A stretch of DNA of 64,000 bases from Chloroflexi bacterium HGW-Chloroflexi-2 (GCA_002840735.1 PHBY01000003.1:186734-250733); one strand, 5' to 3'. Positions 210-52,391 are shown, counted from the stretch's first letter. The notes: generated by a model not told the origin, from the sequence alone. Numbers and translations: made by a program.

Positions 210-1001
210 ATGGCAAGAATATTCACATTAGTCAATCAAAAAGGCGGAGTAGGCAAAACAACCACAGCCATCAATCTGGGGGCATACCTGGGATATTTTG
301 GACAAAGAGTTTTAATAGTTGATTTAGATCCTCAGGCGAATGCAACTTCATCACTTGGGATCGATAAACAGACGGTCAAACATGGCACGTATGAAGTCCT
401 GATTGGATCTCAGCCAATCGCCCCTAACATTTTGCATAATCCTCGTTTAAAAATTTCATTATTACCATCTTCTCCCTCCTTAGCTGGAGCGGAGATTGAA
501 CTGATTGATCTGGATAATCGCGAGTATTTATTAAAGCGAGCACTCACCAATATTTCAGACCGATACGACTATATTCTGATCGATTGTCCCCCATCATTGT
601 CTTTGCTGACAGTTAACGGTTTGATTGCAGCGGAATCAGGGGTCATTATTCCGGTGCAATGTGAATATCTTGCCTTGGAAGGTTTAGGGCAATTGACGCA
701 AACAATCCGAAAAGTTCAGAACTCTCTCTTCCCAGAATTGCAAATAAAAGGCGTCGTTTTGACAATGTATGATGGCAGGACCCGCCTGGCACTGGATGTA
801 GTCAGTGAAGTGCAACGTTATTTTTCAGATCAGGTTTACCAGACAATTATTCCCCGCAGTGTCCGACTGGCAGAGGCGCCCTCATATGGCACACCCATTT
901 CTGCATTTGCTCCTGAATCAACAGCTGCAAAAGCCTATGCTGCTTTAGCAAAAGAGATCCTAGCACAAGACGGTATTATAATTCCATTAATCGAGGAATG
1001 A
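210..1001 (+). CDS. parA: Chromosome partitioning ATPase ParA/Soj
   Basis: Deviant Walker A NQKGGVGKTTTAINL. It aligns along its full length with the Soj/ParA family and sits directly upstream of parB. Confidence 0.9.
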   Translation: MARIFTLVNQKGGVGKTTTAINLGAYLGYFGQRVLIVDLDPQANATSSLGIDKQTVKHGTYEVLIGSQPIAPNILHNPRLKISLLPSSPSLAGAEIELIDLDNREYLLKRALTNISDRYDYILIDCPPSLSLLTVNGLIAAESGVIIPVQCEYLALEGLGQLTQTIRKVQNSLFPELQIKGVVLTMYDGRTRLALDVVSEVQRYFSDQVYQTIIPRSVRLAEAPSYGTPISAFAPESTAAKAYAALAKEILAQDGIIIPLIEE

Positions 1002-1009
1002 GGTTCTAA

Positions 1010-1870
1010 ATGGCAAAAAAACCAGGGTTAGGTAGAGGATTAGATGCATTAATACCAGGTTCTAAACCCACGATTACAGAAGAAGAAAATCAGGTTTCTG
1101 AATTACCCATCGAAAGAATTCTCCCTAATCCCCATCAACCCCGTAGCATCATGGGTGATGAAGAACTCCAAGAACTGGCACAATCCATCCGGGAACATGG
1201 CATTATTCAACCGCTGCTGGTCATTCCCAAAAACGATCGGGAAGAATACGTATTAATTGCCGGGGAACGCCGCTTGCGAGCTGCAAAATTAGCTGGTTTA
1301 CAAAAAGTGCCTGTCATTTTCAGGCAGGCAAGTGATCAGGAACACCTTGAATTGGCATTGATCGAGAATGTCCAGAGAGCAGATTTATCCCCTCTTGAAA
1401 CTGCTGATGCTTACGAACAATTAAACAAGGAATTCAATTTGTCGCATGAGGAAATAGCAAAACGGGTCGGAAAAAGCAGAGTCTCGGTGACGAACACCAT
1501 TCGATTATTGAAGTTACCTGAAAAAGTAAAACTTGCGTTAGCAAAAAATGATATCTCTGAAGGACATGCCAGAACTATTTTAGCCTTAGAAACACCTCAA
1601 GCTCAATCAGCAGTTTTAGATATCGTGATTAAAAATAATTACTCCGTTCGACAAACCGAAGAATTGGTTAAAAAATATAGCGGTGATCGAGAAACGAAAT
1701 CTCCCCCAAGAGTCAAAGATCCTGAAATCAAAGCGTTGGAAGAACGCTTTCAGGACAAATTGGGTATGCGTGTCAATTTGGACCATCGGGGGGATAAAGG
1801 TAAAATCATCATCCATTATTATTCAAATGAGGAACTTAACTCGTTAATAGACCGTTTCATTGAGGATTAA
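1010..1870 (+). CDS. parB: Chromosome partitioning protein ParB/Spo0J
   Basis: ParB-box motifs PNPHQPR and IAGERRLRAA, and the HTH region SHEEIAKRVGKSRVSVTNTIRLLKLP. Confidence 0.9.
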   Translation: MAKKPGLGRGLDALIPGSKPTITEEENQVSELPIERILPNPHQPRSIMGDEELQELAQSIREHGIIQPLLVIPKNDREEYVLIAGERRLRAAKLAGLQKVPVIFRQASDQEHLELALIENVQRADLSPLETADAYEQLNKEFNLSHEEIAKRVGKSRVSVTNTIRLLKLPEKVKLALAKNDISEGHARTILALETPQAQSAVLDIVIKNNYSVRQTEELVKKYSGDRETKSPPRVKDPEIKALEERFQDKLGMRVNLDHRGDKGKIIIHYYSNEELNSLIDRFIED

Positions 1871-8085: not shown

Positions 8086-8766
8086 ATGAAAAATAATAAA
8101 CTTTACGTACAAATTCGTAGTAAAAAATTAGGGATTTTATTAATGGATGCTCGTCTTTCAAAAAAAATCTCTGTTGAGGATATTTCAAAACAAACAGGAA
8201 TTGCTGAAAATCGATTGATACTATTTGAAAATGGTAGTATATCCCCCAGCTTACCTGAATTAGAAATTCTGGCATACACCTATAATCTGCCCATGAATCA
8301 CTTTTGGGGAAGGAAAATTTTACAATCTGATGCAAACAATGAATTTAATGAAAAATTTCAAACATTATTGAAAATCAGGAACAAAATTATTGGTACGAAT
8401 ATTAAATCAAAGCGCCAGGAAAGCGAGATTTCAAGCGAGAAACTCGCTGAGAAATGTGAGATCGACAAAGATCAACTATCAAAATTCGAATCTGGCGAGG
8501 AGGAAATTCCAGTACCAATTCTTGAGATTATTGCTAAATGCTTAAATTGCCAGATCGAAGATTTCTTTGATAACCAGGGGATTATTGGTGCATGGCGTAA
8601 AGAAAATGCCGAAATTAGCAGTTTGAAAGAACTGCCACAGGAATTTAGAGAGTTCATTACCAAACCAATTAATGCACCCTATCTGGATCTGGCGATGAAG
8701 TTGAGTGAGTTAGATGTCCAAAAATTACGTATGGTTGCAGAAGGACTGTTAGAAATAACTTTATAA
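8086..8766 (+). CDS. Transcriptional regulator with two XRE-type helix-turn-helix domains
   Basis: Two copies of the XRE HTH pattern (ISVEDISKQTGIAENRLILFENG and ISSEKLAEKCEIDKDQLSKFESG), each followed by a P...LE.. helix. Confidence 0.7.
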   Translation: MKNNKLYVQIRSKKLGILLMDARLSKKISVEDISKQTGIAENRLILFENGSISPSLPELEILAYTYNLPMNHFWGRKILQSDANNEFNEKFQTLLKIRNKIIGTNIKSKRQESEISSEKLAEKCEIDKDQLSKFESGEEEIPVPILEIIAKCLNCQIEDFFDNQGIIGAWRKENAEISSLKELPQEFREFITKPINAPYLDLAMKLSELDVQKLRMVAEGLLEITL

Positions 8767-8771
8767 TCGCT

Positions 8772-9302
8772 ATGAACATAAATAGTGATATATCCAGAGC
8801 CAATGATCTCTTCAAACAAAAAAAATATGTAGACGCAGCCAGATTATTTGAAAAACTTGCCAGCGCATATCAGGATTTAAAAGAAGTTTGCAAATCAGCT
8901 GAGATGATGAACAACGCCAGCGTTGCTTACCTGATGGCAGGAGATCCTCAAAAATCCTATGAGTTATCAAAAGACACTCATTTAACCTTTGAAGAAACAA
9001 AGGATTGGAAAAATTACGGTCTGGCAATGGGTAATCAAGCTTCTGCTTTGGAAAATTTGGGCAAAAAAGACCTGGCATTAGAATATTATCAAAATGCTGC
9101 TGATAAATTGAAACTGGCTGGTGAGAAAGAATCCAGAGCTTTTGTGCTAAAAAGAATTTCAGCCCTTCAAATCCAAAAGGGAGACCAATTGGATGCCCTG
9201 GGTAGTATGACAGCAGCGTTGCATAATCTACCAGAACTTTCCAGGAGAGAAAAAATTCTAAAAAAATTAACCGACCTGGTTATGAAAATTGGAACTCGAT
9301 AA
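8772..9302 (+). CDS. TPR-like repeat protein
   Basis: Helical repeats with the A..Y/A..L/G pattern (YVDAARLFEKLASAY; ALEYYQNAADKL). No catalytic motif. Confidence 0.5.
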   Translation: MNINSDISRANDLFKQKKYVDAARLFEKLASAYQDLKEVCKSAEMMNNASVAYLMAGDPQKSYELSKDTHLTFEETKDWKNYGLAMGNQASALENLGKKDLALEYYQNAADKLKLAGEKESRAFVLKRISALQIQKGDQLDALGSMTAALHNLPELSRREKILKKLTDLVMKIGTR

Positions 9303-9317
9303 AATTTAACTTTTACA

Positions 9318-10166
9318 ATGTATTCTTCATTAGAAATTCGACCGGCGACTGAAAGAGATCACGCAAAGTTAAATTTCTTTTTAAGTTATGAATTTTTTAT
9401 TCATCAACATTTGGATTGGCAGCCTGTTCTTGATTGGTTAGGGTTCCAACCTTTTTATCTTGCTTTTCATGATGGTGATATCATTGCATGTTTAGCTGCG
9501 CCAAGCGATGTAAGTGAAGTCGCCTGGGTGCGATTATTTGCCTGTTCATCATTATATTCACGAGCAGACATCTGGAATCTGCTTTTTGACCAGATTATCA
9601 AATCATACCAGGGAAAAGTTTCAACAATTGCTGTACTTGGCATTCATCAATGGTTCGTAGATTTATTATTGAAACAATCCTTTGAAGTTCACCAAAATAT
9701 AATTGTGTTTGAGTGGTTTGATCAAATTTTTTCTCAGCCACAACCATTTCAAGATTTAATGATACGACCTGCAGCGTTTGAGGACCTGAGTGAAGTTGCT
9801 AAACTGGATGGTCGTTGCTTTGCTCCAATCTGGCAATTGCCTGAACAATCCTTGAAAAAGGCTTATCCACAGGCCGGATATACAACCGTGGCAGTTCATG
9901 AGGGAAGAATCATTGGCTATCAAATGAGTACGGAATCCTATTCTTCCGCGCATTTGGCCCGTCTGGCAGTTGATCCGGATTTTCAGGGAAATAATATTGG
10001 AAAAATTTTACTGGTTGATTTATTTACCCATTATGAAACCACTGGGATTCATAAAATTACTGTGAACACACAGGATGATAATTTTTCTTCGAAGGCATTA
10101 TATTCTCGTATGGGTTTTATTCAAACTGAAGAAAAATATCCGGTTTTGATTCGAAGAATATCGTAA
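9318..10166 (+). CDS. GNAT-family N-acetyltransferase (tandem GNAT-like fold, RimI-like C-terminal half)
   Basis: The C-terminal half has the acetyl-CoA motif LAVDPDFQGNNIGKILL and YSRMGF. Confidence 0.7.
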   Translation: MYSSLEIRPATERDHAKLNFFLSYEFFIHQHLDWQPVLDWLGFQPFYLAFHDGDIIACLAAPSDVSEVAWVRLFACSSLYSRADIWNLLFDQIIKSYQGKVSTIAVLGIHQWFVDLLLKQSFEVHQNIIVFEWFDQIFSQPQPFQDLMIRPAAFEDLSEVAKLDGRCFAPIWQLPEQSLKKAYPQAGYTTVAVHEGRIIGYQMSTESYSSAHLARLAVDPDFQGNNIGKILLVDLFTHYETTGIHKITVNTQDDNFSSKALYSRMGFIQTEEKYPVLIRRIS

Positions 10167-10193
10167 ATTCGCGGTCAAACTTTACATTACGGG

Positions 10194-10221
10194 TTGACTT
10201 TGCCTTATTTGCGTTTAAAAT
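10194..10221 (+). promoter_or_regulatory. Candidate sigma-70 promoter for the DsbA-like gene
   Basis: TTGACT, a 16-nt spacer, then TAAAAT, about 30 nt upstream of the GGAGG RBS and the ATG at 10250. Confidence 0.35.
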
Positions 10222-10249
10222 TCCAATTACTATTTATGGAGGATTATTA

Positions 10250-10930
10250 ATGGGTAAAAGACAGGAAATCAGGAACAAGAGAATTAAAAAAGCACAAAGT
10301 CAACGACGCATCGTATTAATCAGTGTAATTGCCATATCTCTTCTCATTTCAGCATTTGTAATTTATCAGTCTCAGAAACCCGTCGGGGACATTAAGACCA
10401 TTGAAGAGAAGACGCGTCCACAAACAGATGGACTAACTATGGGTAACCCCGATGCAACTATCGTAGTTGAAGAATTTTCAGATTTTCAATGTGTTGCCTG
10501 TTATCGCTTCTGGCAGAATTTTGAAGAAGATTTTATTAATCGCTATGTGGCAACCGGTGATGTATTATTCAAGTATGTGCCTTTTAGTTTCCTTGGCAAT
10601 GAATCGATCCAGGCAGCGGAAGCAGCATATTGTGCAGAAGAAGAGGGAAGATTCTGGGATTATCATGATACGTTGTTTCTGAATTGGAATGGTGAAAACG
10701 CAGGGAACTTCAGTGATAAACGTTTAGTTGCTTTTGCCGGTTCGTTGGGATTGGATGAGAACAATTTCAGATCCTGTCTGAACAGTAATCGTTATAACAG
10801 TGATGTTCAGGAGGGCCTACGCTACGGGCGAATTTCAGGAGTCAACGCCACCCCAACTTTTCTGGTCAATGGAACACTGGTTTATAGTGATGCTTTGTTT
10901 TCAACAATTGACGAGTTATTAGGAAAATAG
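10250..10930 (+). CDS. Membrane-anchored DsbA-family thiol:disulfide oxidoreductase
   Basis: N-terminal TM helix (IVLISVIAISLLISAFVIY) and a thioredoxin-fold CxxC active site (FQCVACYRFW). Confidence 0.8.
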   Translation: MGKRQEIRNKRIKKAQSQRRIVLISVIAISLLISAFVIYQSQKPVGDIKTIEEKTRPQTDGLTMGNPDATIVVEEFSDFQCVACYRFWQNFEEDFINRYVATGDVLFKYVPFSFLGNESIQAAEAAYCAEEEGRFWDYHDTLFLNWNGENAGNFSDKRLVAFAGSLGLDENNFRSCLNSNRYNSDVQEGLRYGRISGVNATPTFLVNGTLVYSDALFSTIDELLGK

Positions 10931-10941
10931 AAAATCTATTA

Positions 10942-10978
10942 AAATCAGGTCGGAAAAAAGACTCCGATCTGATTTTTT
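10942..10978. terminator. Bidirectional rho-independent terminator between convergent genes
   Basis: A 13-bp stem AAATCAGGTCGGA / TCCGATCTGATTT (one G-U pair), flanked by an A-run on the left and a T-run on the right. Confidence 0.6.
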
Positions 10979-10980
10979 AA

Positions 10981-11694
10981 TTAATAAATTCCAAATAAAT
11001 TAAAAATCCAGATAACCAGTGGTAAAACGATAAAACCAGGCAGGAAATTAGCAACTCTGATTTTTTTAACTTCTAGCAAACTGCTAACAGCAATCCCTAT
11101 CAACATGATTCCCCCAATAGCGCTGAATTCAGCCAATACCTGATCAGACATGATGAATTGTAGTTGAGTTGCCAATAGTGAAAGTCCACCCTGATAAACG
11201 AGGATTACAAGACTGGAAAATAGTACCCCGATTCCGAGACTGGATGCAAATGCAATCGCCGCAAACCCATCCATTATTGCTTTTATCACCAGCGTATTAT
11301 AATCACCGGTCAGACCATCCTGGATAGAACCCAGAATTGCCATTGGTCCAATCGAAAAGAGTAATGACGCCGACAGGAATCCGCGGATGAATTTTGCACT
11401 CTCAATTCCTTTGTTCCTGTTAAACTTTCTTTCGAGAAATACACCCAGGTGAGATAAAGCATCCTCGATTCGCCACCACTCACCTAGTAAAACCCCAATC
11501 AACATACTGATTAATACGACCAGTGCATTTCCAGTTTGCATGAACAATCGGATGCCATACGCGAATGTAAATAAGCCTAAGGCCATCATTACGGTATAAC
11601 GGACTTTTTCCGGTAAGCGATTTCCTAATAATAAACCAAAAAATCCCCCCAGCAGAATTGTAGCGACGTTGATAATTGTTCCGGTTAAATGCAT
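10981..11694 (-). CDS. DUF554-family integral membrane protein
   Basis: N-terminal GTIINVATILLGGFFGLLLGNRLPE pattern and a polytopic membrane profile typical of DUF554. The ATG overlaps the upstream stop (TGATG). Confidence 0.7.
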   Translation of the reverse strand: MHLTGTIINVATILLGGFFGLLLGNRLPEKVRYTVMMALGLFTFAYGIRLFMQTGNALVVLISMLIGVLLGEWWRIEDALSHLGVFLERKFNRNKGIESAKFIRGFLSASLLFSIGPMAILGSIQDGLTGDYNTLVIKAIMDGFAAIAFASSLGIGVLFSSLVILVYQGGLSLLATQLQFIMSDQVLAEFSAIGGIMLIGIAVSSLLEVKKIRVANFLPGFIVLPLVIWIFNLFGIY

Positions 11695-16487: not shown

Positions 16488-17939
16488 CTATCCTTTTACA
16501 ACGGCTAAAGGCACTAATCTGGCTATTTTCCTTGCTAAATCCGCTCCACAGACAGCTTCAATAACCTGATCAACATCTTTGTATGCGCCAGGTGCTTCTT
16601 CAGCTAACCCAGACATGGAACCAGCCTGAATATAGATTCCCTTTTTCTCCAGATCGATTTTAAGTTGGTCTCCCCGAATAGTCTTTTTTGCTTTTTGCCG
16701 GCTCATCAAACGCCCTGCGCCATGACAACTGGACCCAAATGAACGTTCCATACTTGCCTTCGTGCCAGCTAATACCCAGGAGGATGTTCCCATACTCCCA
16801 GGCACCAGTACAGGTTGCCCGGTTTTGGAAAATTCGTCCGGGATACCACTTGAACCTGGTCCAAATGCTCTCGTTGCCCCTTTTCGATGAACACAAACTT
16901 TTCGCAGCTCTCCATCCACCAAATGGTCTTCAATTTTTCCTATATTATGGGCAATATCATACACCTGATAAAGTTGCCAGTTTTTAAATTTTCCAGCCAA
17001 TACCTGTTCGAATGCTTTTCTTGCCAGATGAGCCAATACCTGTCGATTACAAAATGCATAATTTGCTGCTGCGCGCATGGCTGCCAGGTAATCCTGGCCT
17101 TCCTGTGAATTCAATGGTGCGCATACCAATTCCCGATCTGGAATTTTGATCCCATATTTATGAATCGTTTTTTGAAAGGATTGGACAGTATCACTACAAA
17201 CCTGATGTCCAAGACCGCGAGACCCACAATGGATCATAACCGCAATATTTCCTTTTTGTAAACCAAAGATTTCTGCTGTCTCTTCATCAAAAATCTCTTC
17301 TATAAGGTCAATTTCAATAAAATGGTTGCCACTACCGAGGGATCCTAATTGCGGTAACCCCCTTTTTTTTGCTCTTTCACTTAATTTTTTGGCATTCGCA
17401 CCAGGAATACAACCATTTTCCTCTGTTCTGCGCAAGTCCTGTTTCGTGGCATATCCATTTTTCAACGCCCATTGAGAACCATCTTCGCATATTTCATCCA
17501 ACTCTTTCAAACAAAGATGAATTCCCCCTTCAGAACCTACACCACTTGGACAATGATGGTCCAATGCAATAACCAGTGATTGAATTTGATTTTTTACAAC
17601 CTCATATGGTATCTGTGATGCCAGCAAACGGACACCACAATTGATATCATAACCGATACCACCCGGTGAGATGACACCTGTTGAAAAATCGGTAGCTGCA
17701 ACACCTCCGATTGGAAATCCATAACCCTGATGCATATCTGGCATTACAACCACCGAACCAACAACGCCGGGAAGTGTGGCAGCATTGATAGCCTGTTCAA
17801 CGGATAAATCAGATAAACTTTGTTCTAACATTTTTCGGGTGGAAAATATTCTTACCGGCACACGCATATCAGATCGGTAATTACTGGGAATTTTCCACTC
17901 ATAGTCACTTATCTTCTTAAAATCAGTTAACGCAACCAT
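16488..17939 (-). CDS. rtcB: RNA 3'-phosphate ligase RtcB
   Basis: Diagnostic blocks [32 protein letters not shown] and SSCHGAGR. Confidence 0.95.
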
Positions 17940-17954
17940 ATCGCTTCTCTTCCA

Positions 17955-18374
17955 TCATACATCAAAAACGACAACAACCGAATACCCTTTCTTTGTATGA
18001 TTGATTTTTAGGTTATGGTAGGTAACCGCTTTAATTTCCTTTCGGACACTTTTTATTTTCTTGAGACATAACCTGCCCGAAATCTTTTCTTTTTCTATCA
18101 ATAATTCAGAGATTTTTGCACATAGATTATCTTCTTGAATTTTAAAATTACATTCATTCAATAGCGAAATCAACATACTTTCTAAATCAATATCTTCTAT
18201 GCAAAATTCCTGAAAATTTCCAGGATCAGTATCATCCACTTCAATTTCAATGATGCTGTTCAGACCTTCGACAGCTAATTTGAAAAGATCCTTCAAGGTG
18301 CTTGCCCAAATTCTCAATGAAATATCTGCAGTGTGTTCAATTTCTAAATAACCTTCAGGTTTATCAGGGGTCAT
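17955..18374 (-). CDS. Archease (RtcB activator)
   Basis: 139 aa. N-terminal EIEHTADISLRI (EHTAD motif) and C-terminal KAVTYHNL are typical of archease. It lies directly upstream of rtcB on the same strand. Confidence 0.85.
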   Translation of the reverse strand: MTPDKPEGYLEIEHTADISLRIWASTLKDLFKLAVEGLNSIIEIEVDDTDPGNFQEFCIEDIDLESMLISLLNECNFKIQEDNLCAKISELLIEKEKISGRLCLKKIKSVRKEIKAVTYHNLKINHTKKGYSVVVVFDV

Positions 18375-18408: not shown

Positions 18409-19185
18409 ATGAGCTCTATATTTGAAAAAATTGAAAAACAATTACAGAATTTGATAGAGAACAGTGTTCAATTATTTCCCTGGAACTCTCTCCAGAAATC
18501 TGTAGTCATTTCAATCGTTCATGAATTGCGTGATATTTTAATCAAAGCGATTGATAATAACGAAACTATACCCAACATCTATTCAATTTCTGTCCATCCA
18601 GAAGTCTACACAAATCTCAATTCAGATCACCATTGGATACAGGAAATCCAAAAAACGTTAACCGAAAGCGCTGAGGAGTATACCTCCCATTTCATTGGAG
18701 AAATCAGCGTCGAATTTTTTGCCGATCCTGAAATCCTCGCAATAAGTGAATACAGGATTAATTCTTATTCAGTGATAAATGAAATAGAGAAAACAGCGGT
18801 TTTAAATACAAATTTAAATGTTCGCGAAAATAAAAAATTTAGATCCGATGCTTATCTTTTATTGCCAAATAAAGATATTTTCCCACTAACGATTGCAATT
18901 ACACAAATTGGTAGAAAAAATGACAACCATTTGATTATTGATGACCCCACCATTAGCAGGAATCACGCACAAATTCGGAATATCAATGGAAACTTTGTGA
19001 TTTTTGATTTAAATTCAACTTCCGGGACATTTGTAAATGGCATTAGAATAAAACAAGCGTTACTTCGTGGTGGTGATGTGATTTCTATTGCTAATTATCC
19101 ATTAGTTTATGGAGAAGAGGACGATTCGAATGATTTTGACCAAGGCTCCACAACAGAAATTCCAAGAATTGTAGATTCAAAATGA
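18409..19185 (+). CDS. FhaA-like protein (DUF3662-like N-terminus plus C-terminal FHA domain)
   Basis: The N-terminus MSSIFEKIEKQLQNLIENS resembles the FhaA N-domain. The C-terminal FHA core is IGRKNDNHLIIDDPTISRNHAQI ... DLNSTSGTFVNG. Confidence 0.7.
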   Translation: MSSIFEKIEKQLQNLIENSVQLFPWNSLQKSVVISIVHELRDILIKAIDNNETIPNIYSISVHPEVYTNLNSDHHWIQEIQKTLTESAEEYTSHFIGEISVEFFADPEILAISEYRINSYSVINEIEKTAVLNTNLNVRENKKFRSDAYLLLPNKDIFPLTIAITQIGRKNDNHLIIDDPTISRNHAQIRNINGNFVIFDLNSTSGTFVNGIRIKQALLRGGDVISIANYPLVYGEEDDSNDFDQGSTTEIPRIVDSK

Positions 19186-19613
19186 CAGCTATAGTTGTAC
19201 TCATCTTACGAATCATACTCGCAATCCTTTTATTGGGGTTTGTTGGATTATTGTTTTTGACGACCTGGCGTCAATTAAATACGCAGATCAAGCTTCTTTC
19301 TCCGGATTTATCGTCCAATATTCGCATTTCATTTAAAGAGAATCCTGAACAGGAAGCCTTTGTAATCAAACAAACGGATGTGCTTCTGGGTCGTGATCCG
19401 AATTGTAAGATCCATATTCCAGATGAAACTATTTCTGCACAACACGCAAGGCTCTATTTAATTGATCAAAATTGGTGGATACATGATCTGAATTCAACCA
19501 ATGGAACATTTCTAAATGATGAACGTATCGATCAACCGTGTATTTTAGCTGACAATGATATGCTGCAAGTCGGTAATGTAAAATTAATTATTCGCACAAT
19601 TACTTCGCATTAA
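19182..19613 (+). CDS. Membrane-anchored FHA-domain protein (FhaB/FipA-like)
   Basis: N-terminal TM helix, then FHA core LGRDPNCKIHIPDETISAQHARL ... DLNSTNGTFLND. It overlaps the upstream gene by 4 nt (ATGA). Confidence 0.75.
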   Translation: MTAIVVLILRIILAILLLGFVGLLFLTTWRQLNTQIKLLSPDLSSNIRISFKENPEQEAFVIKQTDVLLGRDPNCKIHIPDETISAQHARLYLIDQNWWIHDLNSTNGTFLNDERIDQPCILADNDMLQVGNVKLIIRTITSH

Positions 19614-19637: not shown

Positions 19638-20501
19638 ATGTCTCACAAGATTGATCTCGGTGTCATTGGAGGAACAGGTATTTATCAAATGGAAGGTGTT
19701 TCTATTGTTGAAGATCTGGTGGTAGAGACTCCGTATGGTCCACCCAGTTCACCGATCTTCATCGCTGATGTAGAAGGGAAAACGATTGCTTTTTTAGCAC
19801 GACATGGTATCGGACACCGAATCCCTCCTTCAGAAATTAATAATCGGGCGAATATCTTTGCTTTAAAGAAATTAGGGATCAAAAGCGTGGTTGCGATTTC
19901 TGCCTGTGGATCATTACGTGAAGATTTCGCCCCTGGTGATATTGTGATACCAGATCAAATTGTTGATTTCACGAAAGACCGTGTGAGAACTTTTTTTGAG
20001 ACAGGATTGGTAACTCATGTAAGTACTGCAGATCCATTCTGTCCACATCTATCACAATTATTGTACGAATCTGTCGTAGAGACAGGGGCGAAAGTCCACA
20101 AAGGCGGTTCGTTCGTAACAATTGAAGGACCCAGATTTTCAACCAAAGCAGAATCAAATTTGTTCCGTTCTTGGGGAATGTCTATCATTGGAATGACCAC
20201 CTCTCCTGAGATTTTTCTTGCGCGTGAAGCTGAGATGTGTTATGCAGCCTTCGCCCACGTAACAGATTACGATGTCTGGCATGTTCATGAAGAATCAGTT
20301 ACTGTTGAGATGATCCTAAAAGTTCTCAAGAAAAATGGTCAGATAGCCAATGAATCAGTGCTTAACCTCATCAAAAAACATGAATCATATGATTGTGATT
20401 GTCAGCATGCGCTGGCCAGTGCTATAACCACCCATCCAGATTATGTGGATTCCAGTCAAAAAGAAAAACTCAGCATTTTCATTAATAAATATTTACAGTG
20501 A
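19638..20501 (+). CDS. mtnP: S-methyl-5'-thioadenosine phosphorylase
   Basis: GVIGGTGIY N-terminus, ARHG.GH, GMTTSPE and the overall PNP/MTAP family-2 pattern. Confidence 0.85.
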   Translation: MSHKIDLGVIGGTGIYQMEGVSIVEDLVVETPYGPPSSPIFIADVEGKTIAFLARHGIGHRIPPSEINNRANIFALKKLGIKSVVAISACGSLREDFAPGDIVIPDQIVDFTKDRVRTFFETGLVTHVSTADPFCPHLSQLLYESVVETGAKVHKGGSFVTIEGPRFSTKAESNLFRSWGMSIIGMTTSPEIFLAREAEMCYAAFAHVTDYDVWHVHEESVTVEMILKVLKKNGQIANESVLNLIKKHESYDCDCQHALASAITTHPDYVDSSQKEKLSIFINKYLQ

Positions 20502-23101
20502 ATCAAATCAAAAATCTTTTCTTCAATGATAGAGATCGACTTCAATTAAACCTCTTTATTCTGGGTGGTTCAATCCTTTTTCTATACAGCACTATACTCA
20601 CATTTGCACCTGTTATTCGCACATTAAGCTGGCAAAACTCAGTCAAATGGGAACAATGGGTTGGATTCGTGGTATGGCTCATCCTCAGTATTTTGATTCA
20701 TAAATCCAGTATCCGTTTCTTGCCCAATCGGGATCCATATATCTTACCAATTGTTTATATGTTGACCGGAATTGGAATGCTTACCATCTTCCGTCTTTCA
20801 ATATCCTTTGGATGGCGTCAATTAATCTGGTTTAGTTTAAGTTCTTTGGTTTTGTTTTTTGGCGTCAAATTTCCTTCAATTATCAACCTGCTGCGACGCT
20901 ACAAATATATTTGGCTCTCTTTAGGATTGCTGGTTACTGTATTAACATTCTTTTTTGGGATTTACCCTGGTGGAGAAGGTCCACGTCTCTGGTTGGGATG
21001 CTGTGGAATATACTTCCAACCTTCCGAACCATTAAAACTATTGTTTATTATCTTTCTTTCAGCATTTTTTGCGGATAACTGGGCATTACGAAAGAATTTA
21101 TCTGTCTTGATCATTCCTTCGTTGGTCATTGTGATCGCTGCCATTCTGATACTTTTTGCCCAACGGGACCTCGGGACAGCATCCATTTTTCTCATTATTT
21201 ATGCATTTTTTATCTTTATCGTATCCGGAAAAAAACGCTCTGTTTTCATTTTTTTGACAATCATTGTCATAGCAGGATACTTTGGATACCAGAATTTTGG
21301 TGTCATCCAGATCCGAATTGATGGCTGGTTAAATCCTTGGGTGGATGCATCCGGAGGCTCATATCAGATCATTCAATCCATTCAGGCAATTGCTGCAGGC
21401 CGTATTTTGGGAACAGGGCCAGGATTGGGCAGTCCAGGAATAGTCCCGGTTGCGATTTCGGATTTTATTTTTGCTGCTGTCAGTGAAGAATTAGGTTTGT
21501 TTGGCAGTCTCTTTATCATTAGTTTATTTGCATTTCTTGCCTTTAGAGGTTTCTCAATCGCCATTAAGGGAAGAAATCAATATCAAAGGTTGTTGGCATC
21601 AGGAATCACTGTATTTCTGTCAATCCAATCGATTCTCATAATCGGAGGAAATACAAGATTTTTGCCCCTAACAGGTGTTACACTGCCATTTATGTCCTAT
21701 GGAGGTTCCTCTCTACTTACCGTTTATATAGCCATTCTCATTTTACTCTGGATCAGTCAAAGTCAAACCTCACGAGCTGTCGTTCAGGATGAAGCCAAAC
21801 CTTATATTTTCACGTATTCTTTGATTGTGTTCAGTTTTATATTTATCGCGTTGATCACAGCCTATTGGGCAACCATACGCTCAGATGGTTTACTGTCGAG
21901 AACCGACAACTTACGGAAAATTATTAATGATCGTTTTGTTCCCCGTGGAGATTTGCTGGACCGACAAAACAATCCAATTTTAATTACCACTGGTGATCGT
22001 GGATCATTTGAACGCTTGTTACAGGAGCCTTCCCTATCTACAACGGTGGGGTATAGCCACCCATTTTTAGGGCAGAGTGGTTTAGAAGCCAGTATGGATA
22101 CTTATCTGCGTGGATTAGCCGGGGTGCCTACTTCAAATATCTGGTGGAATGAATTGCTTTATGCCCGTCCTCCGGATGGCAGGGATATCAGAACGACCAT
22201 TGATCTGAATAGGCAACGACAATTAGTTAATACACTCCAGGATTATCATGGAGCAGCCGTGATCATGAATGCAAAAACAGGGGAGATTTTAGGGTTATGG
22301 TCATCTCCCAGTTACAATCCTGCTCAATTGGATGATGCGTGGGGTGAATTATCGATTGATGAAAATGCTCCGTTGATTAATCGTGTTGCGCAAGGAAAAT
22401 ATGAAATTGGAGAGTTATCAGGTTTATTTTTATATTCATATTTAATCGAAAATTCTACCGAAATTGAGGATGAAAATTTCTTCGAAACAGGAAATTGTGC
22501 AATTCCACTAAGTAATCTTGAAAGAAACAACCTGAAAATTGCCTTGATGAGTGGGTGTGAAAATGCCAATTTATTCCTGAATTCGTTGATTGAGGTGGGA
22601 AAAGAAAATGAAATAATTCGAAAATTTGGTTGGAATGAAAATTATTCATTCGAACTTCCTTTTGAACCAGTTGCTTTAATGGCTCATGAATCGCAACTGT
22701 CCTTTGGTTCTACTTTATTATCTCCCCTTCAAGTTGCCAGGTCAGTCTCTGCTTTTTCAAACGCAGGTGAAATACCCTACCCCAGATTAACATTGGCAGT
22801 AAATACACCTCAACAGAATTGGGTGATATTCTCTGCTAAAGAGCCAATTCGAATAATTGACACATTTTCTGCAAATCAGACAGCTAAATTTTTCAGTCGC
22901 AAAGATTATCCTGCCTGGGAAATAACCTCATCAAATGGCTCAGGTGAGAATCCAATTCACTGGTATGTAACGGGGACGATGCCAGACTGGCAAGCAACAC
23001 CACTGGTTTTTGTATTAACGCTCGAGAATGGCTCATCACAGGAAGCAAGAGAACTTGGACGTCAGATCATGGAACAAATTCTTACATCGGGGAGTAAGTA
23101 A
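20498..23101 (+). CDS. Fusion protein: SEDS glycosyltransferase (RodA/FtsW) plus class-B PBP-like domain with degenerate transpeptidase motifs
   Basis: GTG start overlapping the mtnP stop (GTGA). SEDS motifs are QPSEPLKL and PVAISDFIFAAVSEELGLFG. After a TM linker comes a PBP dimer/pedestal-like region (PRGDLLDRQNNPI) and a transpeptidase-like region (AAVIMNAKTGEILGLWSSPSYNP, INRVAQGKY). The SxxK, SxN and KTG motifs are not canonical. Confidence 0.85.
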   Translation: MNQIKNLFFNDRDRLQLNLFILGGSILFLYSTILTFAPVIRTLSWQNSVKWEQWVGFVVWLILSILIHKSSIRFLPNRDPYILPIVYMLTGIGMLTIFRLSISFGWRQLIWFSLSSLVLFFGVKFPSIINLLRRYKYIWLSLGLLVTVLTFFFGIYPGGEGPRLWLGCCGIYFQPSEPLKLLFIIFLSAFFADNWALRKNLSVLIIPSLVIVIAAILILFAQRDLGTASIFLIIYAFFIFIVSGKKRSVFIFLTIIVIAGYFGYQNFGVIQIRIDGWLNPWVDASGGSYQIIQSIQAIAAGRILGTGPGLGSPGIVPVAISDFIFAAVSEELGLFGSLFIISLFAFLAFRGFSIAIKGRNQYQRLLASGITVFLSIQSILIIGGNTRFLPLTGVTLPFMSYGGSSLLTVYIAILILLWISQSQTSRAVVQDEAKPYIFTYSLIVFSFIFIALITAYWATIRSDGLLSRTDNLRKIINDRFVPRGDLLDRQNNPILITTGDRGSFERLLQEPSLSTTVGYSHPFLGQSGLEASMDTYLRGLAGVPTSNIWWNELLYARPPDGRDIRTTIDLNRQRQLVNTLQDYHGAAVIMNAKTGEILGLWSSPSYNPAQLDDAWGELSIDENAPLINRVAQGKYEIGELSGLFLYSYLIENSTEIEDENFFETGNCAIPLSNLERNNLKIALMSGCENANLFLNSLIEVGKENEIIRKFGWNENYSFELPFEPVALMAHESQLSFGSTLLSPLQVARSVSAFSNAGEIPYPRLTLAVNTPQQNWVIFSAKEPIRIIDTFSANQTAKFFSRKDYPAWEITSSNGSGENPIHWYVTGTMPDWQATPLVFVLTLENGSSQEARELGRQIMEQILTSGSK

Positions 23102-23218: not shown

Positions 23219-24379
23219 AAGAACTTTGTTAAACTCACCTCTAAAGAACGAACCTAACTCGAAAAACTTGTTTCATCAGGGAATGCCCCAGCCAGGAAAC
23301 ACCGCCGTGCGAGAATATTGCTCAAGTCGGATTGCGAGGAAGGCAGTCCTAATTGGACGTATGCGGAAATATGCAAAGCGTTTGATATCAATCCACTTAC
23401 AGTGACCAATGTGCGTAAAGCATTCACTGAAAGAGGGTTAGCAGAATCAATAATCCGTAAAAAACCTGATCGTGAGTACCAGCACCGACTGGATGGGAAT
23501 GTGGAAGCTCATCTCATTGCTTTAGCATGCGGAGAAGCGTCAGAAGGATATGAGCGGTGGTCGTTATGCCTTTTACAAGAGCGGTTTATAAAGCTGGAGA
23601 TTATTGAATGCGTTTCGCATGATACCATTAGTACCACGCTCAAAAAAACGAACGTAAACCTTGGTTGAAAGGGGAATGTTCATTCCCCCTAAAGCGAATG
23701 CAGCGTTTGTCTGCAATATGGAAGATGTTTTAGAAGTGTATATCCGAACCTATGATCCAAAACAACCACAAATCTGTATGGATGAAACCTGTAAGCAGTT
23801 GTTGGCAGATCTTCAAACACCATTACCATTACAAACTGGACAACCACAGCGGTTCGATTACGAGTACGAACTAGAAGGAGTAGCTGACCTGTTTATGTTC
23901 TTTGAACCTTAAGCAGGGAAGCGGTATGTGAAAGTAACGCCACGACGAACCAATCGAGATTGGGCGATTGCAATGCTGAACTTTTGGATAATATTTATCC
24001 TCTAGCTGAGGTCACTGATGTGGTGATGGACAATCTAAATACCCACTCTCCCAGTTCTTTCCATGAAACATTTGAACCAGAGGAAGCCCGAAGATTAGTA
24101 AATCGGTTTGAATTTCATTACACACCGAAACACGGCAGTTAGCTCAACATGGCTGAAATTGAACCGAGCATTTTGACCTGGCAAGGTCTCAATCGTCGTA
24201 TTTCAGACATGACTGCTTTGAAACGGGAAGTAAAAGTCTGGAAAGATGAACGAAATGCTAAAAATGTGAAGGTTGATTGGCGATTTACGACGTCTGATGC
24301 TCGTATTAAATTGAGGCATCTCTACGCAGTAATTCAGGAAGGGTTATCTGGTGGAAGAATTAGTTGCTTGAAGTTTTAA
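23219..24379 (+). pseudogene. Decayed IS630-family (DDE) transposase
   Basis: Four ORF fragments plus upstream sequence together rebuild an IS630-type transposase: LTSKERT*LEKLVSSGNAPARKHRRARILL..., ...VVMDNLNTHSP..., FHYTPKHGS*LNMAEIE..., DWRFTTSDARIKL. It is interrupted by in-frame stops (about 23255, 23910, 24140) and frameshifts (about 23665 and 23970). No start codon is retained. Confidence 0.8.
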
Positions 24380-24425
24380 TATCCAGGTTCCATTGAATTT
24401 GAATACTGTGTTAGCCCGTTTCTGG

Positions 24426-25013
24426 CTAGGGAAGTGGGCTTTCTGCCAGCATGAATCGGATTGATAATTCTTGAAATGCCAACTTTTTTGGTGTGTTGTT
24501 GATCAACGCCATTATTCTTGTTACACACTCATTAACATCGAGAACGGAAGTGTCTACTTCGAGATCATATAAACCATGACTGTGGACACTTTCGAATTGA
24601 TACTGAGCAGTACCAATATTTCGGTCGCCCCGCTCTTTTTCACGTTGTTCTGCTATTCTTAATGGACATCTCACGCCTACAAAAAGAACATCCAAATCTT
24701 TCCAATTCTCGACACATTCTTTCAGCCACCCATTTTCCTGTAATACATGGTCAACAAGCACGTTATTGCCTGATTGTGCCAAAGATGCAACACACTTATG
24801 TAAACCAGATACCACAGTAGGAATAAGATGGGAAAGAATTATGGCCTCATCCTGATTTGTTGGGTTTAGGTATTTTTCAGGATACATATGAAAAAAGTCA
24901 TCTACTGAAACATACATATAAGGTTCTTCCAATTTATCTTGTAGAGCCTTGGCAATCGTGGTTTTTCCAGAACTCGATGTTCCATTTAGAAAAATAACAA
25001 GTCCTTTTTTCAT
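24426..25013 (-). CDS. Chloramphenicol-phosphotransferase-like (CPT family) P-loop kinase
   Basis: P-loop LNGTSSSGKTT and a block LDVLFVGVRCPLRIAEQREKERGDRNIGTAQYQFESVHSHGLYDLEVDTS that closely parallels Streptomyces venezuelae CPT as I recall it (LDVLWVGVRC...RGDR...YDVEVDTT). Confidence 0.75.
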   Translation of the reverse strand: MKKGLVIFLNGTSSSGKTTIAKALQDKLEEPYMYVSVDDFFHMYPEKYLNPTNQDEAIILSHLIPTVVSGLHKCVASLAQSGNNVLVDHVLQENGWLKECVENWKDLDVLFVGVRCPLRIAEQREKERGDRNIGTAQYQFESVHSHGLYDLEVDTSVLDVNECVTRIMALINNTPKKLAFQELSIRFMLAESPLP

Positions 25014-49053: not shown

Positions 49054-49824
49054 TTACTTTTGTTTTTTGAGAATAATTGTTACTTTACGATTTGGTTCTT
49101 CACCAACACTCTCCGTCATCACATATTCATGATTCCGTAACTCCAGATGGATCACTCGACGCTCATTGGCTGGCATCGGTTCCAGATTTTGTCTTCGACC
49201 CGTGTGAACAACCTGCTCTGCCATTCTACGTGCCAGAACCTTTAATTGTCTTTCACGTCGTTCCCTATATCCCTGCACATCAATCATTAGGGGAACCCAT
49301 TCTCCATATTCTTTGGCAACGATCAGACTGCTGATATATTGAAGTGAATTCAAGGTTTCGCTACGGCGGCCGATCAGGATGCTTAAATCTCTGCCCAGTA
49401 TTTCCACCTGCACCATTCTCTGGTCTCGTTCATCGATGGGTGCAACGTACTTTGCTTCAACTTTTGCATCGATGTGCATTTTTTGAAGCAATTCCCAAAC
49501 AACATCTTCGGCTAATTTTAAAACCGGGTCTTTTTCGATCTCAACGGTATCTGTAACAATTGGAGAAGGTTTTTCAGCTATTGGTTTTTCAACAGTAGCT
49601 CTTTCAGTTTTGGGGTTCAGTTCAGGTTTTTTCTCTTCTCCATTGCGAATAGAAAGTCGTACACGAGCTTGTCTACTCCCCAACCCAAACAGACCTTTAC
49701 TGCCTTGATCCAATACTTCAACATCCAACTTGTCTTGCGCTATTCCTAATGTCTTTGCCCCTTGTTCGATTGCTTCTTCAACAGTAGGAGCTATGAATTC
49801 CTGGGTAATTTTTTTGTATTCCAT
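49054..49824 (-). CDS. jag: Jag/KhpB RNA-binding protein (Jag_N, KH, R3H)
   Basis: N-terminal Jag_N pattern (TVEEAIEQGAKTLG) and C-terminal R3H (LEPMPANERRVIHLEL). Canonical position after yidC. Confidence 0.85.
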   Translation of the reverse strand: MEYKKITQEFIAPTVEEAIEQGAKTLGIAQDKLDVEVLDQGSKGLFGLGSRQARVRLSIRNGEEKKPELNPKTERATVEKPIAEKPSPIVTDTVEIEKDPVLKLAEDVVWELLQKMHIDAKVEAKYVAPIDERDQRMVQVEILGRDLSILIGRRSETLNSLQYISSLIVAKEYGEWVPLMIDVQGYRERRERQLKVLARRMAEQVVHTGRRQNLEPMPANERRVIHLELRNHEYVMTESVGEEPNRKVTIILKKQK

Positions 49825-49839
49825 AAGAGATCCAACTTT

Positions 49840-50643
49840 CTACTTTTTCCGTTTTGTTGAAACTGCCACTGGTTTATTGGTTTTTTTGCCAGGCAAGAGG
49901 TTTCTCCAATTGACTTTTCCTAACATTGCATATTGGGCAATACCGAGTAGGTTTGATACCAGGAAGTATAAAGATAATCCCGATGCCAATGTCAATGCCA
50001 GATAACCCATAAAGAAAGGCATGTATATGTTCATCATATTACCCATCATCGCCGTTTGATCTTTTGGATTTTGTGATGGTGGTTGAATCAATTTTGATTG
50101 GACATAGGTTGAAATAACCACCAATATAGCCAGAATTGGAATTCCAAATGAAAGAAATGGGAGATTTAATCGTTCTGGTTGCCCTAAATCCATCCATAAA
50201 AATTGACTGTTCAACGGTATGATACTTGAGACATCCAGAAAATCTGAATAGACGTGACGGACCAAATTAAGCACCTCTACTGGAGTTGCTGCTAAAGCAG
50301 CAATAATACTCTGGTATAGAGCGATGATAATTGGAAATTGGATCAAAGTTGGTAAACAGGAGGCAAATGGGTTGATACCTTTTTCTTTGTAATACTTCAT
50401 TTGCTCCTGGGCTAATTTTTCCTTATCGCCCTTATATTTTTCCTGTACTTTTTTCCACTCTTCGTCCTGTTGCATATTCTGCATACCCTGGGCGCCTTTA
50501 ATTTGCTTAACCATCAAAGGATGAGTGATTAAACGTATTATGATGGTGAAGAGAATGATCGCAATCCCGAAGTTTTTACCAACGATACTGTAAATAAATA
50601 GTATTACATTTATAAAGGGAGTAATGATTATTGCATCCCACAT
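49840..50643 (-). CDS. yidC: Membrane protein insertase YidC (short, Gram-positive-like form)
   Basis: Conserved blocks GIAIILFTIIIRLITHPL, GINPFASCLPTLIQFPI and FLWMDLGQP. Confidence 0.9.
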   Translation of the reverse strand: MWDAIIITPFINVILFIYSIVGKNFGIAIILFTIIIRLITHPLMVKQIKGAQGMQNMQQDEEWKKVQEKYKGDKEKLAQEQMKYYKEKGINPFASCLPTLIQFPIIIALYQSIIAALAATPVEVLNLVRHVYSDFLDVSSIIPLNSQFLWMDLGQPERLNLPFLSFGIPILAILVVISTYVQSKLIQPPSQNPKDQTAMMGNMMNIYMPFFMGYLALTLASGLSLYFLVSNLLGIAQYAMLGKVNWRNLLPGKKTNKPVAVSTKRKK

Positions 50644-50657
50644 TTTTTAACCTGCCT

Positions 50658-51710
50658 TTACTTTTCTGGCGTGAATTTCCAGATCTCATTGCCATTAAAA
50701 TCGTAAGCTTTGATGACTTCTTCCCCTTGAGAAATACCCAAAACCAACAAGCCATCCACAATTACTGGGCCAGTATACAATTTTCCAGTAATGGAGCGAG
50801 TCCACAAGATGTTTCCATTGAAATCCAAAGCAACCAACTTGCCATTTTCACCCGCAAATACAACTCCATCAGGCATGACTGCTGGCGCTCCAGATACCAT
50901 CTCACCCATCACATAATCCCATACAGCATTTCCATCAGTAGCAGACACCGCAAATATTTTTCCAGCAGTATCACCATAATAAACTACTCCATTGTCATAT
51001 ACTGGCTGAGACCATAAACCCACTTCGGATTTATTCTTCCATAGAATTGCACCGTTCTTTGCATTAACAGCAACCACTTCATTCGCAAGAGTCGCCACAA
51101 AGATCGTATCTGTATCAAAGGTTGGGCTATAAACGATTGCACCACCCATGTCTACTTCCCAAATTGATTGGCCACTTTTGATATTAATCGCATATAAATA
51201 ATGGTCCATGGAAGACAGGTAAACTACATCTTCATGAACAATTGGAGTGGACCAGAGTGCATGATTGGCTGTGAATTTCCATTTTAGATTACCATTCAAG
51301 TCCAATGCGTATAAATTATGATCCGCATTAGGAGCTAAAATTGTATCTCCAACCACGAGTGCACCACCAATATAGCGGTTAGTTGCACCTTCAAAGGTCC
51401 AGATTTCTATACCGGTTTGAATATTCAACGCCGACAAAGTGTTTTTATAATCGCCAACGATTATATTCGATCCGTTGATAGCAGGGTTTGCATAATAAGT
51501 TCTCGCTGCTTCAACTTTTTCAGGGTATCGCCAATTCAGAGATCCATCTTTTAACCGTAATGCATAAACCTGATTTGCATAGGCAACATAAACAGAATCC
51601 TCATCACCGGAAATACCTGGCCAACCACTGGCATTCAAGACTCCACTACAAGCGGACAAGCTTAATGTCAGCATGACAAACATTGTAATTATTAATATTT
51701 TTTTCTTCAT
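50658..51710 (-). CDS. PQQ-like beta-propeller lipoprotein (BamB-like repeat family)
   Basis: Lipobox LSLSAC after a signal peptide. There are repeated G..W.. / Y..D...G...W blocks typical of PQQ/BamB-type eight-bladed propellers. Confidence 0.75.
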   Translation of the reverse strand: MKKKILIITMFVMLTLSLSACSGVLNASGWPGISGDEDSVYVAYANQVYALRLKDGSLNWRYPEKVEAARTYYANPAINGSNIIVGDYKNTLSALNIQTGIEIWTFEGATNRYIGGALVVGDTILAPNADHNLYALDLNGNLKWKFTANHALWSTPIVHEDVVYLSSMDHYLYAINIKSGQSIWEVDMGGAIVYSPTFDTDTIFVATLANEVVAVNAKNGAILWKNKSEVGLWSQPVYDNGVVYYGDTAGKIFAVSATDGNAVWDYVMGEMVSGAPAVMPDGVVFAGENGKLVALDFNGNILWTRSITGKLYTGPVIVDGLLVLGISQGEEVIKAYDFNGNEIWKFTPEK

Positions 51711-51759
51711 TGAACTCTTTAATTTCAGGGGGTAATTAAACTCATTAAACCTGATTCAT

Positions 51760-52041
51760 TCAGGGAACAGGGTCGTAACCACCGGGGTTAAATGGATTGC
51801 AACGCAACACCCGCCAGATCGCCATCAATAAACCTTTTATGGCTCCATGTTTATAAATGGCCTGATACCCATAATGAGAACAGCTGGGATAGAAGCGGCA
51901 GGTATTCGCCGGTAATGCTGGAGAAATTAGTTTCTGATATAAACGAATGAAAACCAATAATATCCAGCGCGGAAAATTTCTCAAATTGAATGGTAAGGAA
52001 TTTAAAGTAGGCTCATTCGGATACTCGTGTAGATAACTCAT
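51760..52041 (-). CDS. yidD: Membrane protein insertion efficiency factor YidD
   Basis: Hallmark [19 protein letters not shown]. It overlaps the rnpA stop by 4 nt. Confidence 0.85.
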
Positions 52042-52391
52042 TTCCTTCCACTTTCGTCCAAAAACAATCCTGCACGCTTTAGCAAGCAGATCTCTGCTGC
52101 GATAATATCACAAAAAGCAGCATCCACAATTGGTTTTCTTGCCAGAAACACCAGATCCCAACCAGGCTGAATATTTTCCATTAATTCGCTCAAACTGGCT
52201 CGCATCCGGCGTTTCGCACGATTTCTTGTAACAGCATTTCCAACAGCCTTACCAGCAGATACTCCAATTCTGAGTAACCCATCAGGGTTTGGCAATATGA
52301 TCAAAACGAGTAGAGGATGGGCAATGGATTTTCCTGTTTGCTTTACCCGTTGAAAATCGTTTGATCGCGTTAATCGATAGTTGCGTTTCAC
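52038..52391 (-). CDS. rnpA: Ribonuclease P protein component
   Basis: The RNR-type motif [15 protein letters not shown], the size, and the position between rpmH and yidD. Confidence 0.85.

Follow-up and report, generated by a model that had tools for sequence, protein, structure and literature searches.

We analysed a 64,000-nucleotide stretch of the genome of Chloroflexi bacterium HGW-Chloroflexi-2 (GCA_002840735.1 PHBY01000003.1:186734-250733), referred to here as the window, and found a gene that encodes a glycosyltransferase of SEDS type (for shape, elongation, division and sporulation) and a penicillin-binding protein of class B (bPBP) in one polypeptide. A first-pass annotation, made from the sequence alone, had proposed such a fusion in which all three transpeptidase motifs are dead, and our alignments, structural models and an alignment control support that proposal. 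Our data suggest that the protein is probably the RodA-PbpA synthase of the Anaerolineae (Chloroflexota) made as a single chain, in which the dead PbpA half is kept as a non-catalytic partner of the SEDS half.

Domain layout of the fusion

The fusion gene occupies 20498..23101 on the + strand, where it forms an open reading frame (ORF) with a GTG start, 867 codons plus a stop and no internal stops, as first reported. Its SEDS (RodA/FtsW-type) domain comprises aa 1-421 (20498..21760, +). Pfam FTSW_RODA_SPOVE (PF01098) matches aa 86-423 with an E-value of 2e-66 (224.6 bits against a cut-off of 26.4), and Pfam Transpeptidase (PF00905) matches aa 585-774 with an E-value of 1e-10 (41.8 bits against a cut-off of 22.1), covering only positions 1-199 of the 299 in that profile. 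Both matches are above threshold, while the match to PBP_dimer_2 is weak and sub-threshold (13.7 against 27).

The SEDS half aligns with the structures of Pseudomonas aeruginosa FtsW (8bh1), which is its best sequence match in the PDB, and Escherichia coli RodA (8tj3_B). The segment ISDFIFA of the fusion aligns with HTDFVFA of P. aeruginosa FtsW, placing D322 (21461..21463, +; within S-D-F-I-F) on the FtsW Asp, and the putative catalytic Asp is therefore retained. With a protein search we obtained 120 fused, full-length homologues, approximately 845-889 aa long and ranging from 99% down to 42% identity, and the column counts given throughout refer to the 121 sequences formed by the window protein and these homologues. 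D322 is present in 121/121 and QPSEPLK in approximately 120/121, while E330 and E331 are invariant or nearly so. Judged by sequence, the SEDS domain retains all residues with a known importance for the polymerisation of lipid II, which agrees with the normal SEDS half, carrying QPSEPLKL and D322, of the first-pass annotation.

The annotation had also placed a further transmembrane (TM) helix, a bPBP pedestal and a transpeptidase-like fold after the SEDS domain, and all three were recovered by AlphaFold 2 (AF2) modelling, profile alignment and Foldseek. The full-length AF2 model has a mean predicted local distance difference test score (pLDDT) of 85.2 and a predicted template modelling score (pTM) of 0.74. 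The extra, 11th TM helix lies at aa 430-460 (21785..21877, +; AF2 helix H430-460, hydropathy peak at aa 437-455). It is the counterpart of the N-terminal anchor of a free bPBP and returns the chain to the outside of the membrane; unfused relatives begin with a TM anchor homologous to this helix.

Loss of the three catalytic motifs

Catalytic motifs were mapped by pairwise phmmer alignments and by profile alignments to PDB entries. The profile was built from 21 family members and aligns across the whole domain with the PbpA-type protein of Eggerthella (4mnr) with an E-value of 1e-30. When the PBP half was aligned pairwise, YEIGELSG of the window protein aligned with YAPGSTFK of 4mnr, so that the motif 1 (S-x-x-K) position reads E639-L-S-G642 (22412..22423, +), with E639 at the Ser and G642 at the Lys. 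The profile alignment gave the same assignment, in agreement with the Glu and Gly read there previously. The motif 2 (S-x-N/D) position falls within the stretch MSGCEN, as anticipated, and consists of G686-C687-E688 (22553..22561, +), aligned to SSN of 4mnr and to SCD of Acinetobacter baumannii PBP2 (8zpc). Motif 3 (K-T-G) had been placed in either EITSS or VTGT. Our data indicate the former: I809-T810-S811 (22922..22930, +) aligns to GKTGTAE of 4mnr on strand beta-3 (AF2 strand E806-813). The latter (aa 824-827) was rejected, as it aligns with strand beta-4 (SWFVGMAP of 4mnr).

A regular-expression scan of the PBP half found one SxxK, the C-terminal SGSK at 864-867 that had already been singled out as the only one, and one KTG, at aa 593. 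Neither is a displaced motif: SGSK belongs to the C-terminal tail, and the KTG at aa 593 is part of the NAKTGEIL strand that bPBPs share. In the profile and structure alignments, the active-site columns hold no genuine SxxK, SxN or KTG. The head domain has thus lost both catalytic residues of SxxK (the nucleophilic Ser and the Lys), as well as Ser and Asn from SxN and Lys and Gly from KTG.

As a control, actinobacterial SEDS-PbpA fusions were aligned with hmmalign to the hidden Markov model of the Anaerolineae family, and identical columns were read. S..K was found in 33/33 SEDS-containing fusions of Coriobacteriia and Actinomycetota where the window protein reads E..G, and S.N in 32/32 where it reads G.E. 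In the rows that cover motif 3, KTG stands where the window protein reads ITS. Given the 33/33 and 32/32 matches at the same columns, the motif loss is not an alignment artefact, and misalignment was rejected as its source.

Conservation of the fusion and of the motif loss

Where names are given, the homologues include Anaerolineaceae and Longilinea arvoryzae (class Anaerolineae). None of the 121 sequences has Lys at the motif 1 Lys column, which holds Gly in 77, Ser in 20, Thr in 14 and Ala in 10. The motif 1 Ser column is unconstrained (T in 62, N in 17, A in 14, S in 13, E in 7, P in 5 and G in 2) and in the clade to which the window belongs carries either Glu or Asn. At motif 2, G686 is kept in 116/121 and C687 in 120/121, and column 688 is Pro in 80 and Glu in 16. 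The motif 3 Lys column, 809, holds I, T, A, S or V and never Lys. Furthermore, when 1.84 billion cluster representatives were searched with a profile, 930 matched at E <= 1e-30, and SxxK was found in none of the motif 1 rows legible among the best 150 of these. Both the fusion and the motif loss are thus conserved among the 120 homologues and the best cluster representatives, and these alignments indicate that the loss is common to the whole clade and not peculiar to the source genome.

The profile matches also include unfused dead PbpA proteins of 440-470 aa, one of them named 'Anaerolineales bacterium'; these have their own Met-TM anchor and a degenerate YQPG[GST]xLQ. In one related locus (L019, 2-1923), rodA is represented by its 3' end, which runs 4 bp into an unfused PbpA-like gene of 466 aa, whose product has its own TM anchor and the motif 1 sequence YQPGSVLQ, in which the Ser is kept and the Lys is replaced by Gln. 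A rough neighbour-joining tree, computed with no bootstrap and with an outgroup that is itself fused, places the unfused dead clade as sister of the fused clade.

A subclade of fusions has gone further. Its members (L016, P0219, P0259 and P0230) are approximately 780-805 aa long and have deleted approximately 60-80 head-domain residues, covering the motif 1 helix, C667 and the G-C motif 2 loop, while keeping the remainder. The short form of L016 has 804 aa and lies at 8585-10999 of that locus, which comes from the complete chromosome of Anaerolineales bin917 (CP070639.1). This deletion is a further step in the reduction of the pseudo-transpeptidase. Separately, one homologue of 63% identity (P0040), which carries the JGI name 'glycopeptide antibiotics resistance protein', has 611 aa, fewer than is usual in the family, and could be either a truncated record or a protein with another N-terminus.

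Selection on the fused gene

A fused ORF with a degenerate 3' half could in principle arise from a missed stop or frameshift joining rodA and pbpA, or could represent a gene whose 3' half is decaying as a pseudogene. The existence of separate rodA and unfused dead pbpA genes with a 4-bp overlap in the related lineage described above, and the faster evolution of the transpeptidase half compared with the remainder, are what one would cite for such an artefact. However, an intact fused ORF of 859-867 aa is present in 15 complete, independently assembled metagenome-assembled genome (MAG) loci, in addition to the 804-aa form, and the same fusion is found in the genome of the cultured isolate L. arvoryzae (GCA_001050235.2) and in locus L021, on a contig of 5.4 Mb. 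Together with the 120 homologous protein clusters, which span 42-99% identity, this led us to reject an assembly error or frameshift.

The substitution pattern was estimated as the ratio of nonsynonymous to synonymous rates (dN/dS) by the method of Nei and Gojobori (NG86), comparing the window gene with relatives at 72-91% identity. The ratio is 0.04-0.115 for the SEDS domain, 0.05-0.12 for the pedestal and 0.09-0.16 for the dead head domain, which contains no stops. At 43% overall identity, the per-domain identities are 0.54, 0.48 and 0.33, respectively. The head domain is therefore somewhat relaxed but, on these estimates, clearly maintained by purifying selection. Since its dN/dS is low and its fold is predicted with confidence, a decaying pseudogene half was likewise rejected, and we give almost no credence to an artefactual origin of either the fusion or the dead motifs.

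Pedestal and head-domain fold

The PbpA-type pedestal, a non-penicillin-binding module, spans aa 470-584 (21905..22249, +) and was delimited by profile alignment to bPBP pedestals, with the weak PBP_dimer_2 match in the same region. Its RGxLLDR and GQSGLE boxes are kept (PRGDLLDRQN and GQSGLE align to bPBP pedestals), and R483, G484, D488, G525, G528 and E530 are invariant. The head, aa 585-867 (22250..23098, +), has a penicillin-binding (transpeptidase) fold without catalytic residues, as indicated by PF00905, AF2 and Foldseek. An AF2 model of aa 470-867 reached a pLDDT of 85.3 and a pTM of 0.88. When this model was compared with the PDB by Foldseek, PbpA-type bPBPs ranked first with TM-scores of 0.75-0.80 (Eggerthella 4mnr, the Atopobium 4ra7 series and Mycobacterium tuberculosis PbpA, 3upn), and the match to 4mnr (0.78) spans both pedestal and head. 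In addition, a PF21922 match is recorded in many homologues of the fusion. The models thus predict a penicillin-binding fold that is complete and from which the chemistry is gone.

Several features of the head domain other than the motifs are conserved, namely NRxxQGxY, W775, W807, W822 and C667. The last of these (22496..22498, +) and C687 (22556-22558) are two almost invariant extracytoplasmic Cys residues located approximately 20 residues apart, on either side of the old SxN loop. Both are invariant in one alignment of the family (as C198 and C218); in another, C687 is invariant and C667 is kept in at least 90%. They may form a structural disulfide.

This conservation raises the question of whether the PBP-like domain is still an enzyme, using non-canonical residues such as Cys687 with the Thr that many family members have at the Ser position, to carry out transpeptidation or another reaction on peptidoglycan that beta-lactams do not affect. 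The near-invariance of G686-C687, the conserved Trp residues, C667 and NRxxQGxY, the purifying selection on the head and the Thr found at the Ser column in 62 of the 121 sequences would all fit such an enzyme. However, that column accepts T, N, A, S, E, P and G, and neither catalytic Lys has been replaced by a basic residue. Cys687 occupies the central 'x' of SxN, a position that is also Cys in the 'SCD' of the active A. baumannii PBP2, and a disulfide is the simpler explanation for a conserved pair of extracytoplasmic Cys. Moreover, the deleted subclade has lost motif 1, C667 and the C687 segment while keeping the rest of the protein. Cys687 is thus an unlikely alternative nucleophile, and we consider residual catalysis of this kind very unlikely overall.

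Gene neighbourhood and cellular role

The fusion is the last gene of a conserved four-gene block whose members overlap or are tightly spaced. The first gene, fhaA-like, lies at 18409..19185 (+) and encodes FhaA_N and forkhead-associated (FHA) domains (Pfam FHA 1.5e-19, FhaA_N 1.8e-7); it overlaps the next gene by 4 bp, and its upstream place is kept in Longilinea and in the other loci that extend far enough. The second, at 19182..19613 (+), is FhaB/FipA-like, with an N-terminal TM helix and an FHA domain (Pfam FHA 2.4e-21), and is syntenic in L001-L017, L020 and L021 wherever the locus reaches that far. The third, at 19638..20501 (+), encodes a methylthioadenosine/purine nucleoside phosphorylase-like (MTAP-like) protein (Pfam PNP_UDP_1 7e-45) and is always directly 5' of the fusion in related loci. 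Its stop and the GTG start of the fusion gene share 4 bp, an arrangement repeated in the syntenic loci. Where loci extend far enough, the conserved order is SBP-SecG-PHP-YbaK-RtcB-archease, then fhaA-fhaB-MTAP-fusion, then tyrS. A scan of 18.3-23.4 kb for promoters and terminators found sites no more numerous than in shuffled sequence. By analogy with the actinobacterial cluster, the apparent co-transcription of the fusion with genes for FhaA- and FhaB-like FHA proteins points to regulation through Ser/Thr phosphorylation as a possibility.

The neighbourhood also bears on whether the fusion serves elongation or division. Its matches in NCBIfam are to FtsW, RodA and PBP2 models; the SEDS half scores slightly higher against FtsW (229 bits) than against RodA (192 bits). 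Given these scores, the P. aeruginosa FtsW structure as best PDB sequence match, and an FtsK gene within the same conserved region, the fusion could be a division synthase equivalent to FtsW-FtsI, or the sole SEDS machine of these filamentous bacteria, serving both roles. However, all of the NCBIfam scores are far below their equivalog cut-offs. The PBP half is of PbpA type, with a weak PBP_dimer_2 match, PF21922 in many homologues and its best folds among the PbpA-like proteins of M. tuberculosis and Coriobacteriia, and the fhaA-fhaB context resembles the actinobacterial rodA-pbpA cluster and not the dcw cluster. We therefore regard a division or dual role as unlikely, if less so than residual catalysis, and a RodA-PbpA synthase as the better description.

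Other features of the region were noted. An RtcB RNA ligase gene and its archease partner (16488-18374, -) lie divergently beside fhaA, a pairing kept in most related Anaerolineaceae loci. In most syntenic loci tyrS directly follows the fusion; in the window an insertion at 23318-25013 lies downstream of it. This contains IS630-like transposase fragments, consisting of an HTH_32/HTH_29 ORF (23318-23668), which is common to L014, and two ORFs without a Pfam match (23661-23912 and 24149-24379), followed by a chloramphenicol-phosphotransferase-like kinase gene (24426-25013, -). According to Pfam, parA-parB is located at the start of the window (210-1870) and a jag-yidC-yidD-rnpA string at 49054-52391 (-); both are markers usually found near the chromosomal replication origin. 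The cumulative GC skew reaches its minimum at approximately 56-60 kb of the window.

Proposed function and significance

We propose, as the likely explanation, that the fusion is the RodA-PbpA synthase of the Anaerolineae with a PbpA half retained for a non-catalytic role. The SEDS half would polymerise lipid II, while the PbpA-like half would carry out no peptide cross-linking and should not bind beta-lactams, as judged from the residues at its active-site columns. Contacts made by the TM helix and pedestal would license or activate SEDS polymerisation, and the head domain may stabilise the pedestal or dock regulators or another synthase. Cross-linking would then fall to a separate enzyme encoded elsewhere in the genome, for which a further bPBP, a class A PBP and an L,D-transpeptidase are candidates. 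An activating or scaffolding role of the dead domain is consistent with the purifying selection acting on it and with the engineered dead bPBPs that have been published.

Several observations weigh against this proposal. The polymerase activity, the lack of acylation and the activation by the pedestal are all things that we infer. The deletion of approximately 60-80 residues in one subclade indicates that large parts of the head domain are dispensable. Neither the 64 kb of the window nor the +/-10 kb flanks of 20 related loci encode another PBP or SEDS protein, and NCBIfam ranks FtsW slightly ahead of RodA, with both scores under the cut-off. Furthermore, a Pkinase or PP2C domain was found neither in the listed genes of L020 and L021 (+/-10 kb) nor adjoining the fusion in the window; since, unlike in Actinobacteria, neither a Ser/Thr kinase nor a PstP phosphatase is adjacent, the regulatory link is weak.

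A bolder extension of the RodA-PbpA proposal is that the RodA partner of the Anaerolineae is permanently non-catalytic, such that the polymerising machine would lack a transpeptidase and either the wall is cross-linked wholly in trans or the Trp- and Cys-rich cleft has acquired a new function. We put this forward tentatively, as a speculation more apt to be wrong than right. If cross-linking occurred in trans through L,D-transpeptidases or class A PBPs, the wall would be intrinsically indifferent to beta-lactams that target PBP2. If the cleft had a new function, this might be, for example, the sensing of stem peptides or the docking of partners under FHA/phospho-Thr control.

In current models, a bPBP activates SEDS polymerisation through TM and pedestal contacts and also cross-links the product, and the separability of these two roles is known mainly from engineered point mutants. 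A clade, which we describe as large and ancient, in which the catalytic residues are lost while the domain stays under purifying selection and is often fused would show that the non-catalytic role suffices to retain a bPBP. The fusion would also offer a 1:1 covalent complex of SEDS and pedestal for structural and biochemical work. It leads to the prediction that, in a group abundant in the environment and in wastewater, beta-lactams do not target the elongation synthase. Finally, there is a problem of annotation: public names read only 'FtsW/RodA/SpoVE family' or 'cell division protein FtsW', and domain-based surveys would count the Anaerolineae fusions as 'bifunctional' transpeptidases.

Comparison with known systems

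Activation of a SEDS protein by its cognate bPBP is an established mechanism, and the fusion shares the parts of the two-protein RodA-PBP2 and FtsW-FtsI pairs (Thermus thermophilus 6pl5, E. coli 8tj3, P. aeruginosa 8bh1): a homologous SEDS domain with its Asp, a TM anchor, a pedestal and a head. It differs from them in that the two halves are covalently joined, by a short linker in the cytoplasm and by the anchor helix of the bPBP, and in that the head domain is predicted to be incapable of DD-transpeptidation.

In Actinobacteria, the corresponding genes are arranged as fhaA-fhaB-pstP-rodA-pbpA-pknA-pknB. The window resembles this cluster in having FhaA (FhaA_N and FHA) and FhaB (TM and FHA) genes upstream of the synthase, in the same orientation and with overlapping frames. 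In contrast to the actinobacterial cluster, an MTAP-like gene takes the place of pstP, rodA forms a single gene with a dead pbpA, and a convergent tyrS follows with no pknA or pknB.

A catalogue of 2025 lists SEDS-bPBP chimeras, 117 InterPro proteins in all, and regards them as putative 'bifunctional class B' synthases (PMC12516126). These include chimeras of Senegalimassilia faecalis and Rhodococcus jostii, the latter with the order glycosyltransferase, pedestal, transpeptidase, and the available part of that catalogue mentions neither catalytically dead members nor Anaerolineae. The best sequence and fold matches to the PBP half of the window protein are the fusions of Coriobacteriia (Eggerthella lenta and Atopobium parvulum; 4mnr, 4jbf, 4n1x and 4ra7), which likewise combine SEDS, PBP_dimer_2 and Transpeptidase domains in one polypeptide. 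Homologues of 4mnr carry PF01098, PF21922 and PF00905, including a 100%-identical protein of 719 aa that is probably a partial cluster representative (P0284), and in Eggerthellaceae, Olsenella and other Actinomycetota they go by the name 'FtsW/RodA/SpoVE family cell cycle protein'. The actinobacterial fusions keep S-T-F-K, S-x-N and K-T-G and have been crystallised as beta-lactam complexes, whereas the Anaerolineae proteins are without these residues. Compared with the 'bifunctional' fusions, the window protein thus keeps the SEDS centre and is without the transpeptidase centre. Since chimeras have been catalogued and the Coriobacteriia versions crystallised, the fusion architecture itself is already known. 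Our literature search turned up nothing specific on PBPs of Anaerolineae and no account, for this or any other group, of a fused or free bPBP that is catalytically dead and conserved throughout a clade, and the conserved pseudo-transpeptidase is apparently the new part.

The closest functional parallels are engineered. PBP2B(S309A) can sustain division in Bacillus subtilis provided that PBP3 is there too (PMC5656894). The FtsW polymerase is activated by its cognate bPBP in a study in which a figure legend marks catalytically inactive variants (10.1101/358663). In these inactive bPBPs, as proposed for the fusion, the structural or activating role is split from catalysis and another PBP performs the cross-linking. 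These are, however, laboratory point mutants of enzymes that are canonical in other respects, whereas the loss in the Anaerolineae arose naturally, extends to all three motifs, recurs in each homologue and representative aligned, and has proceeded to partial deletion of the domain in one subclade.

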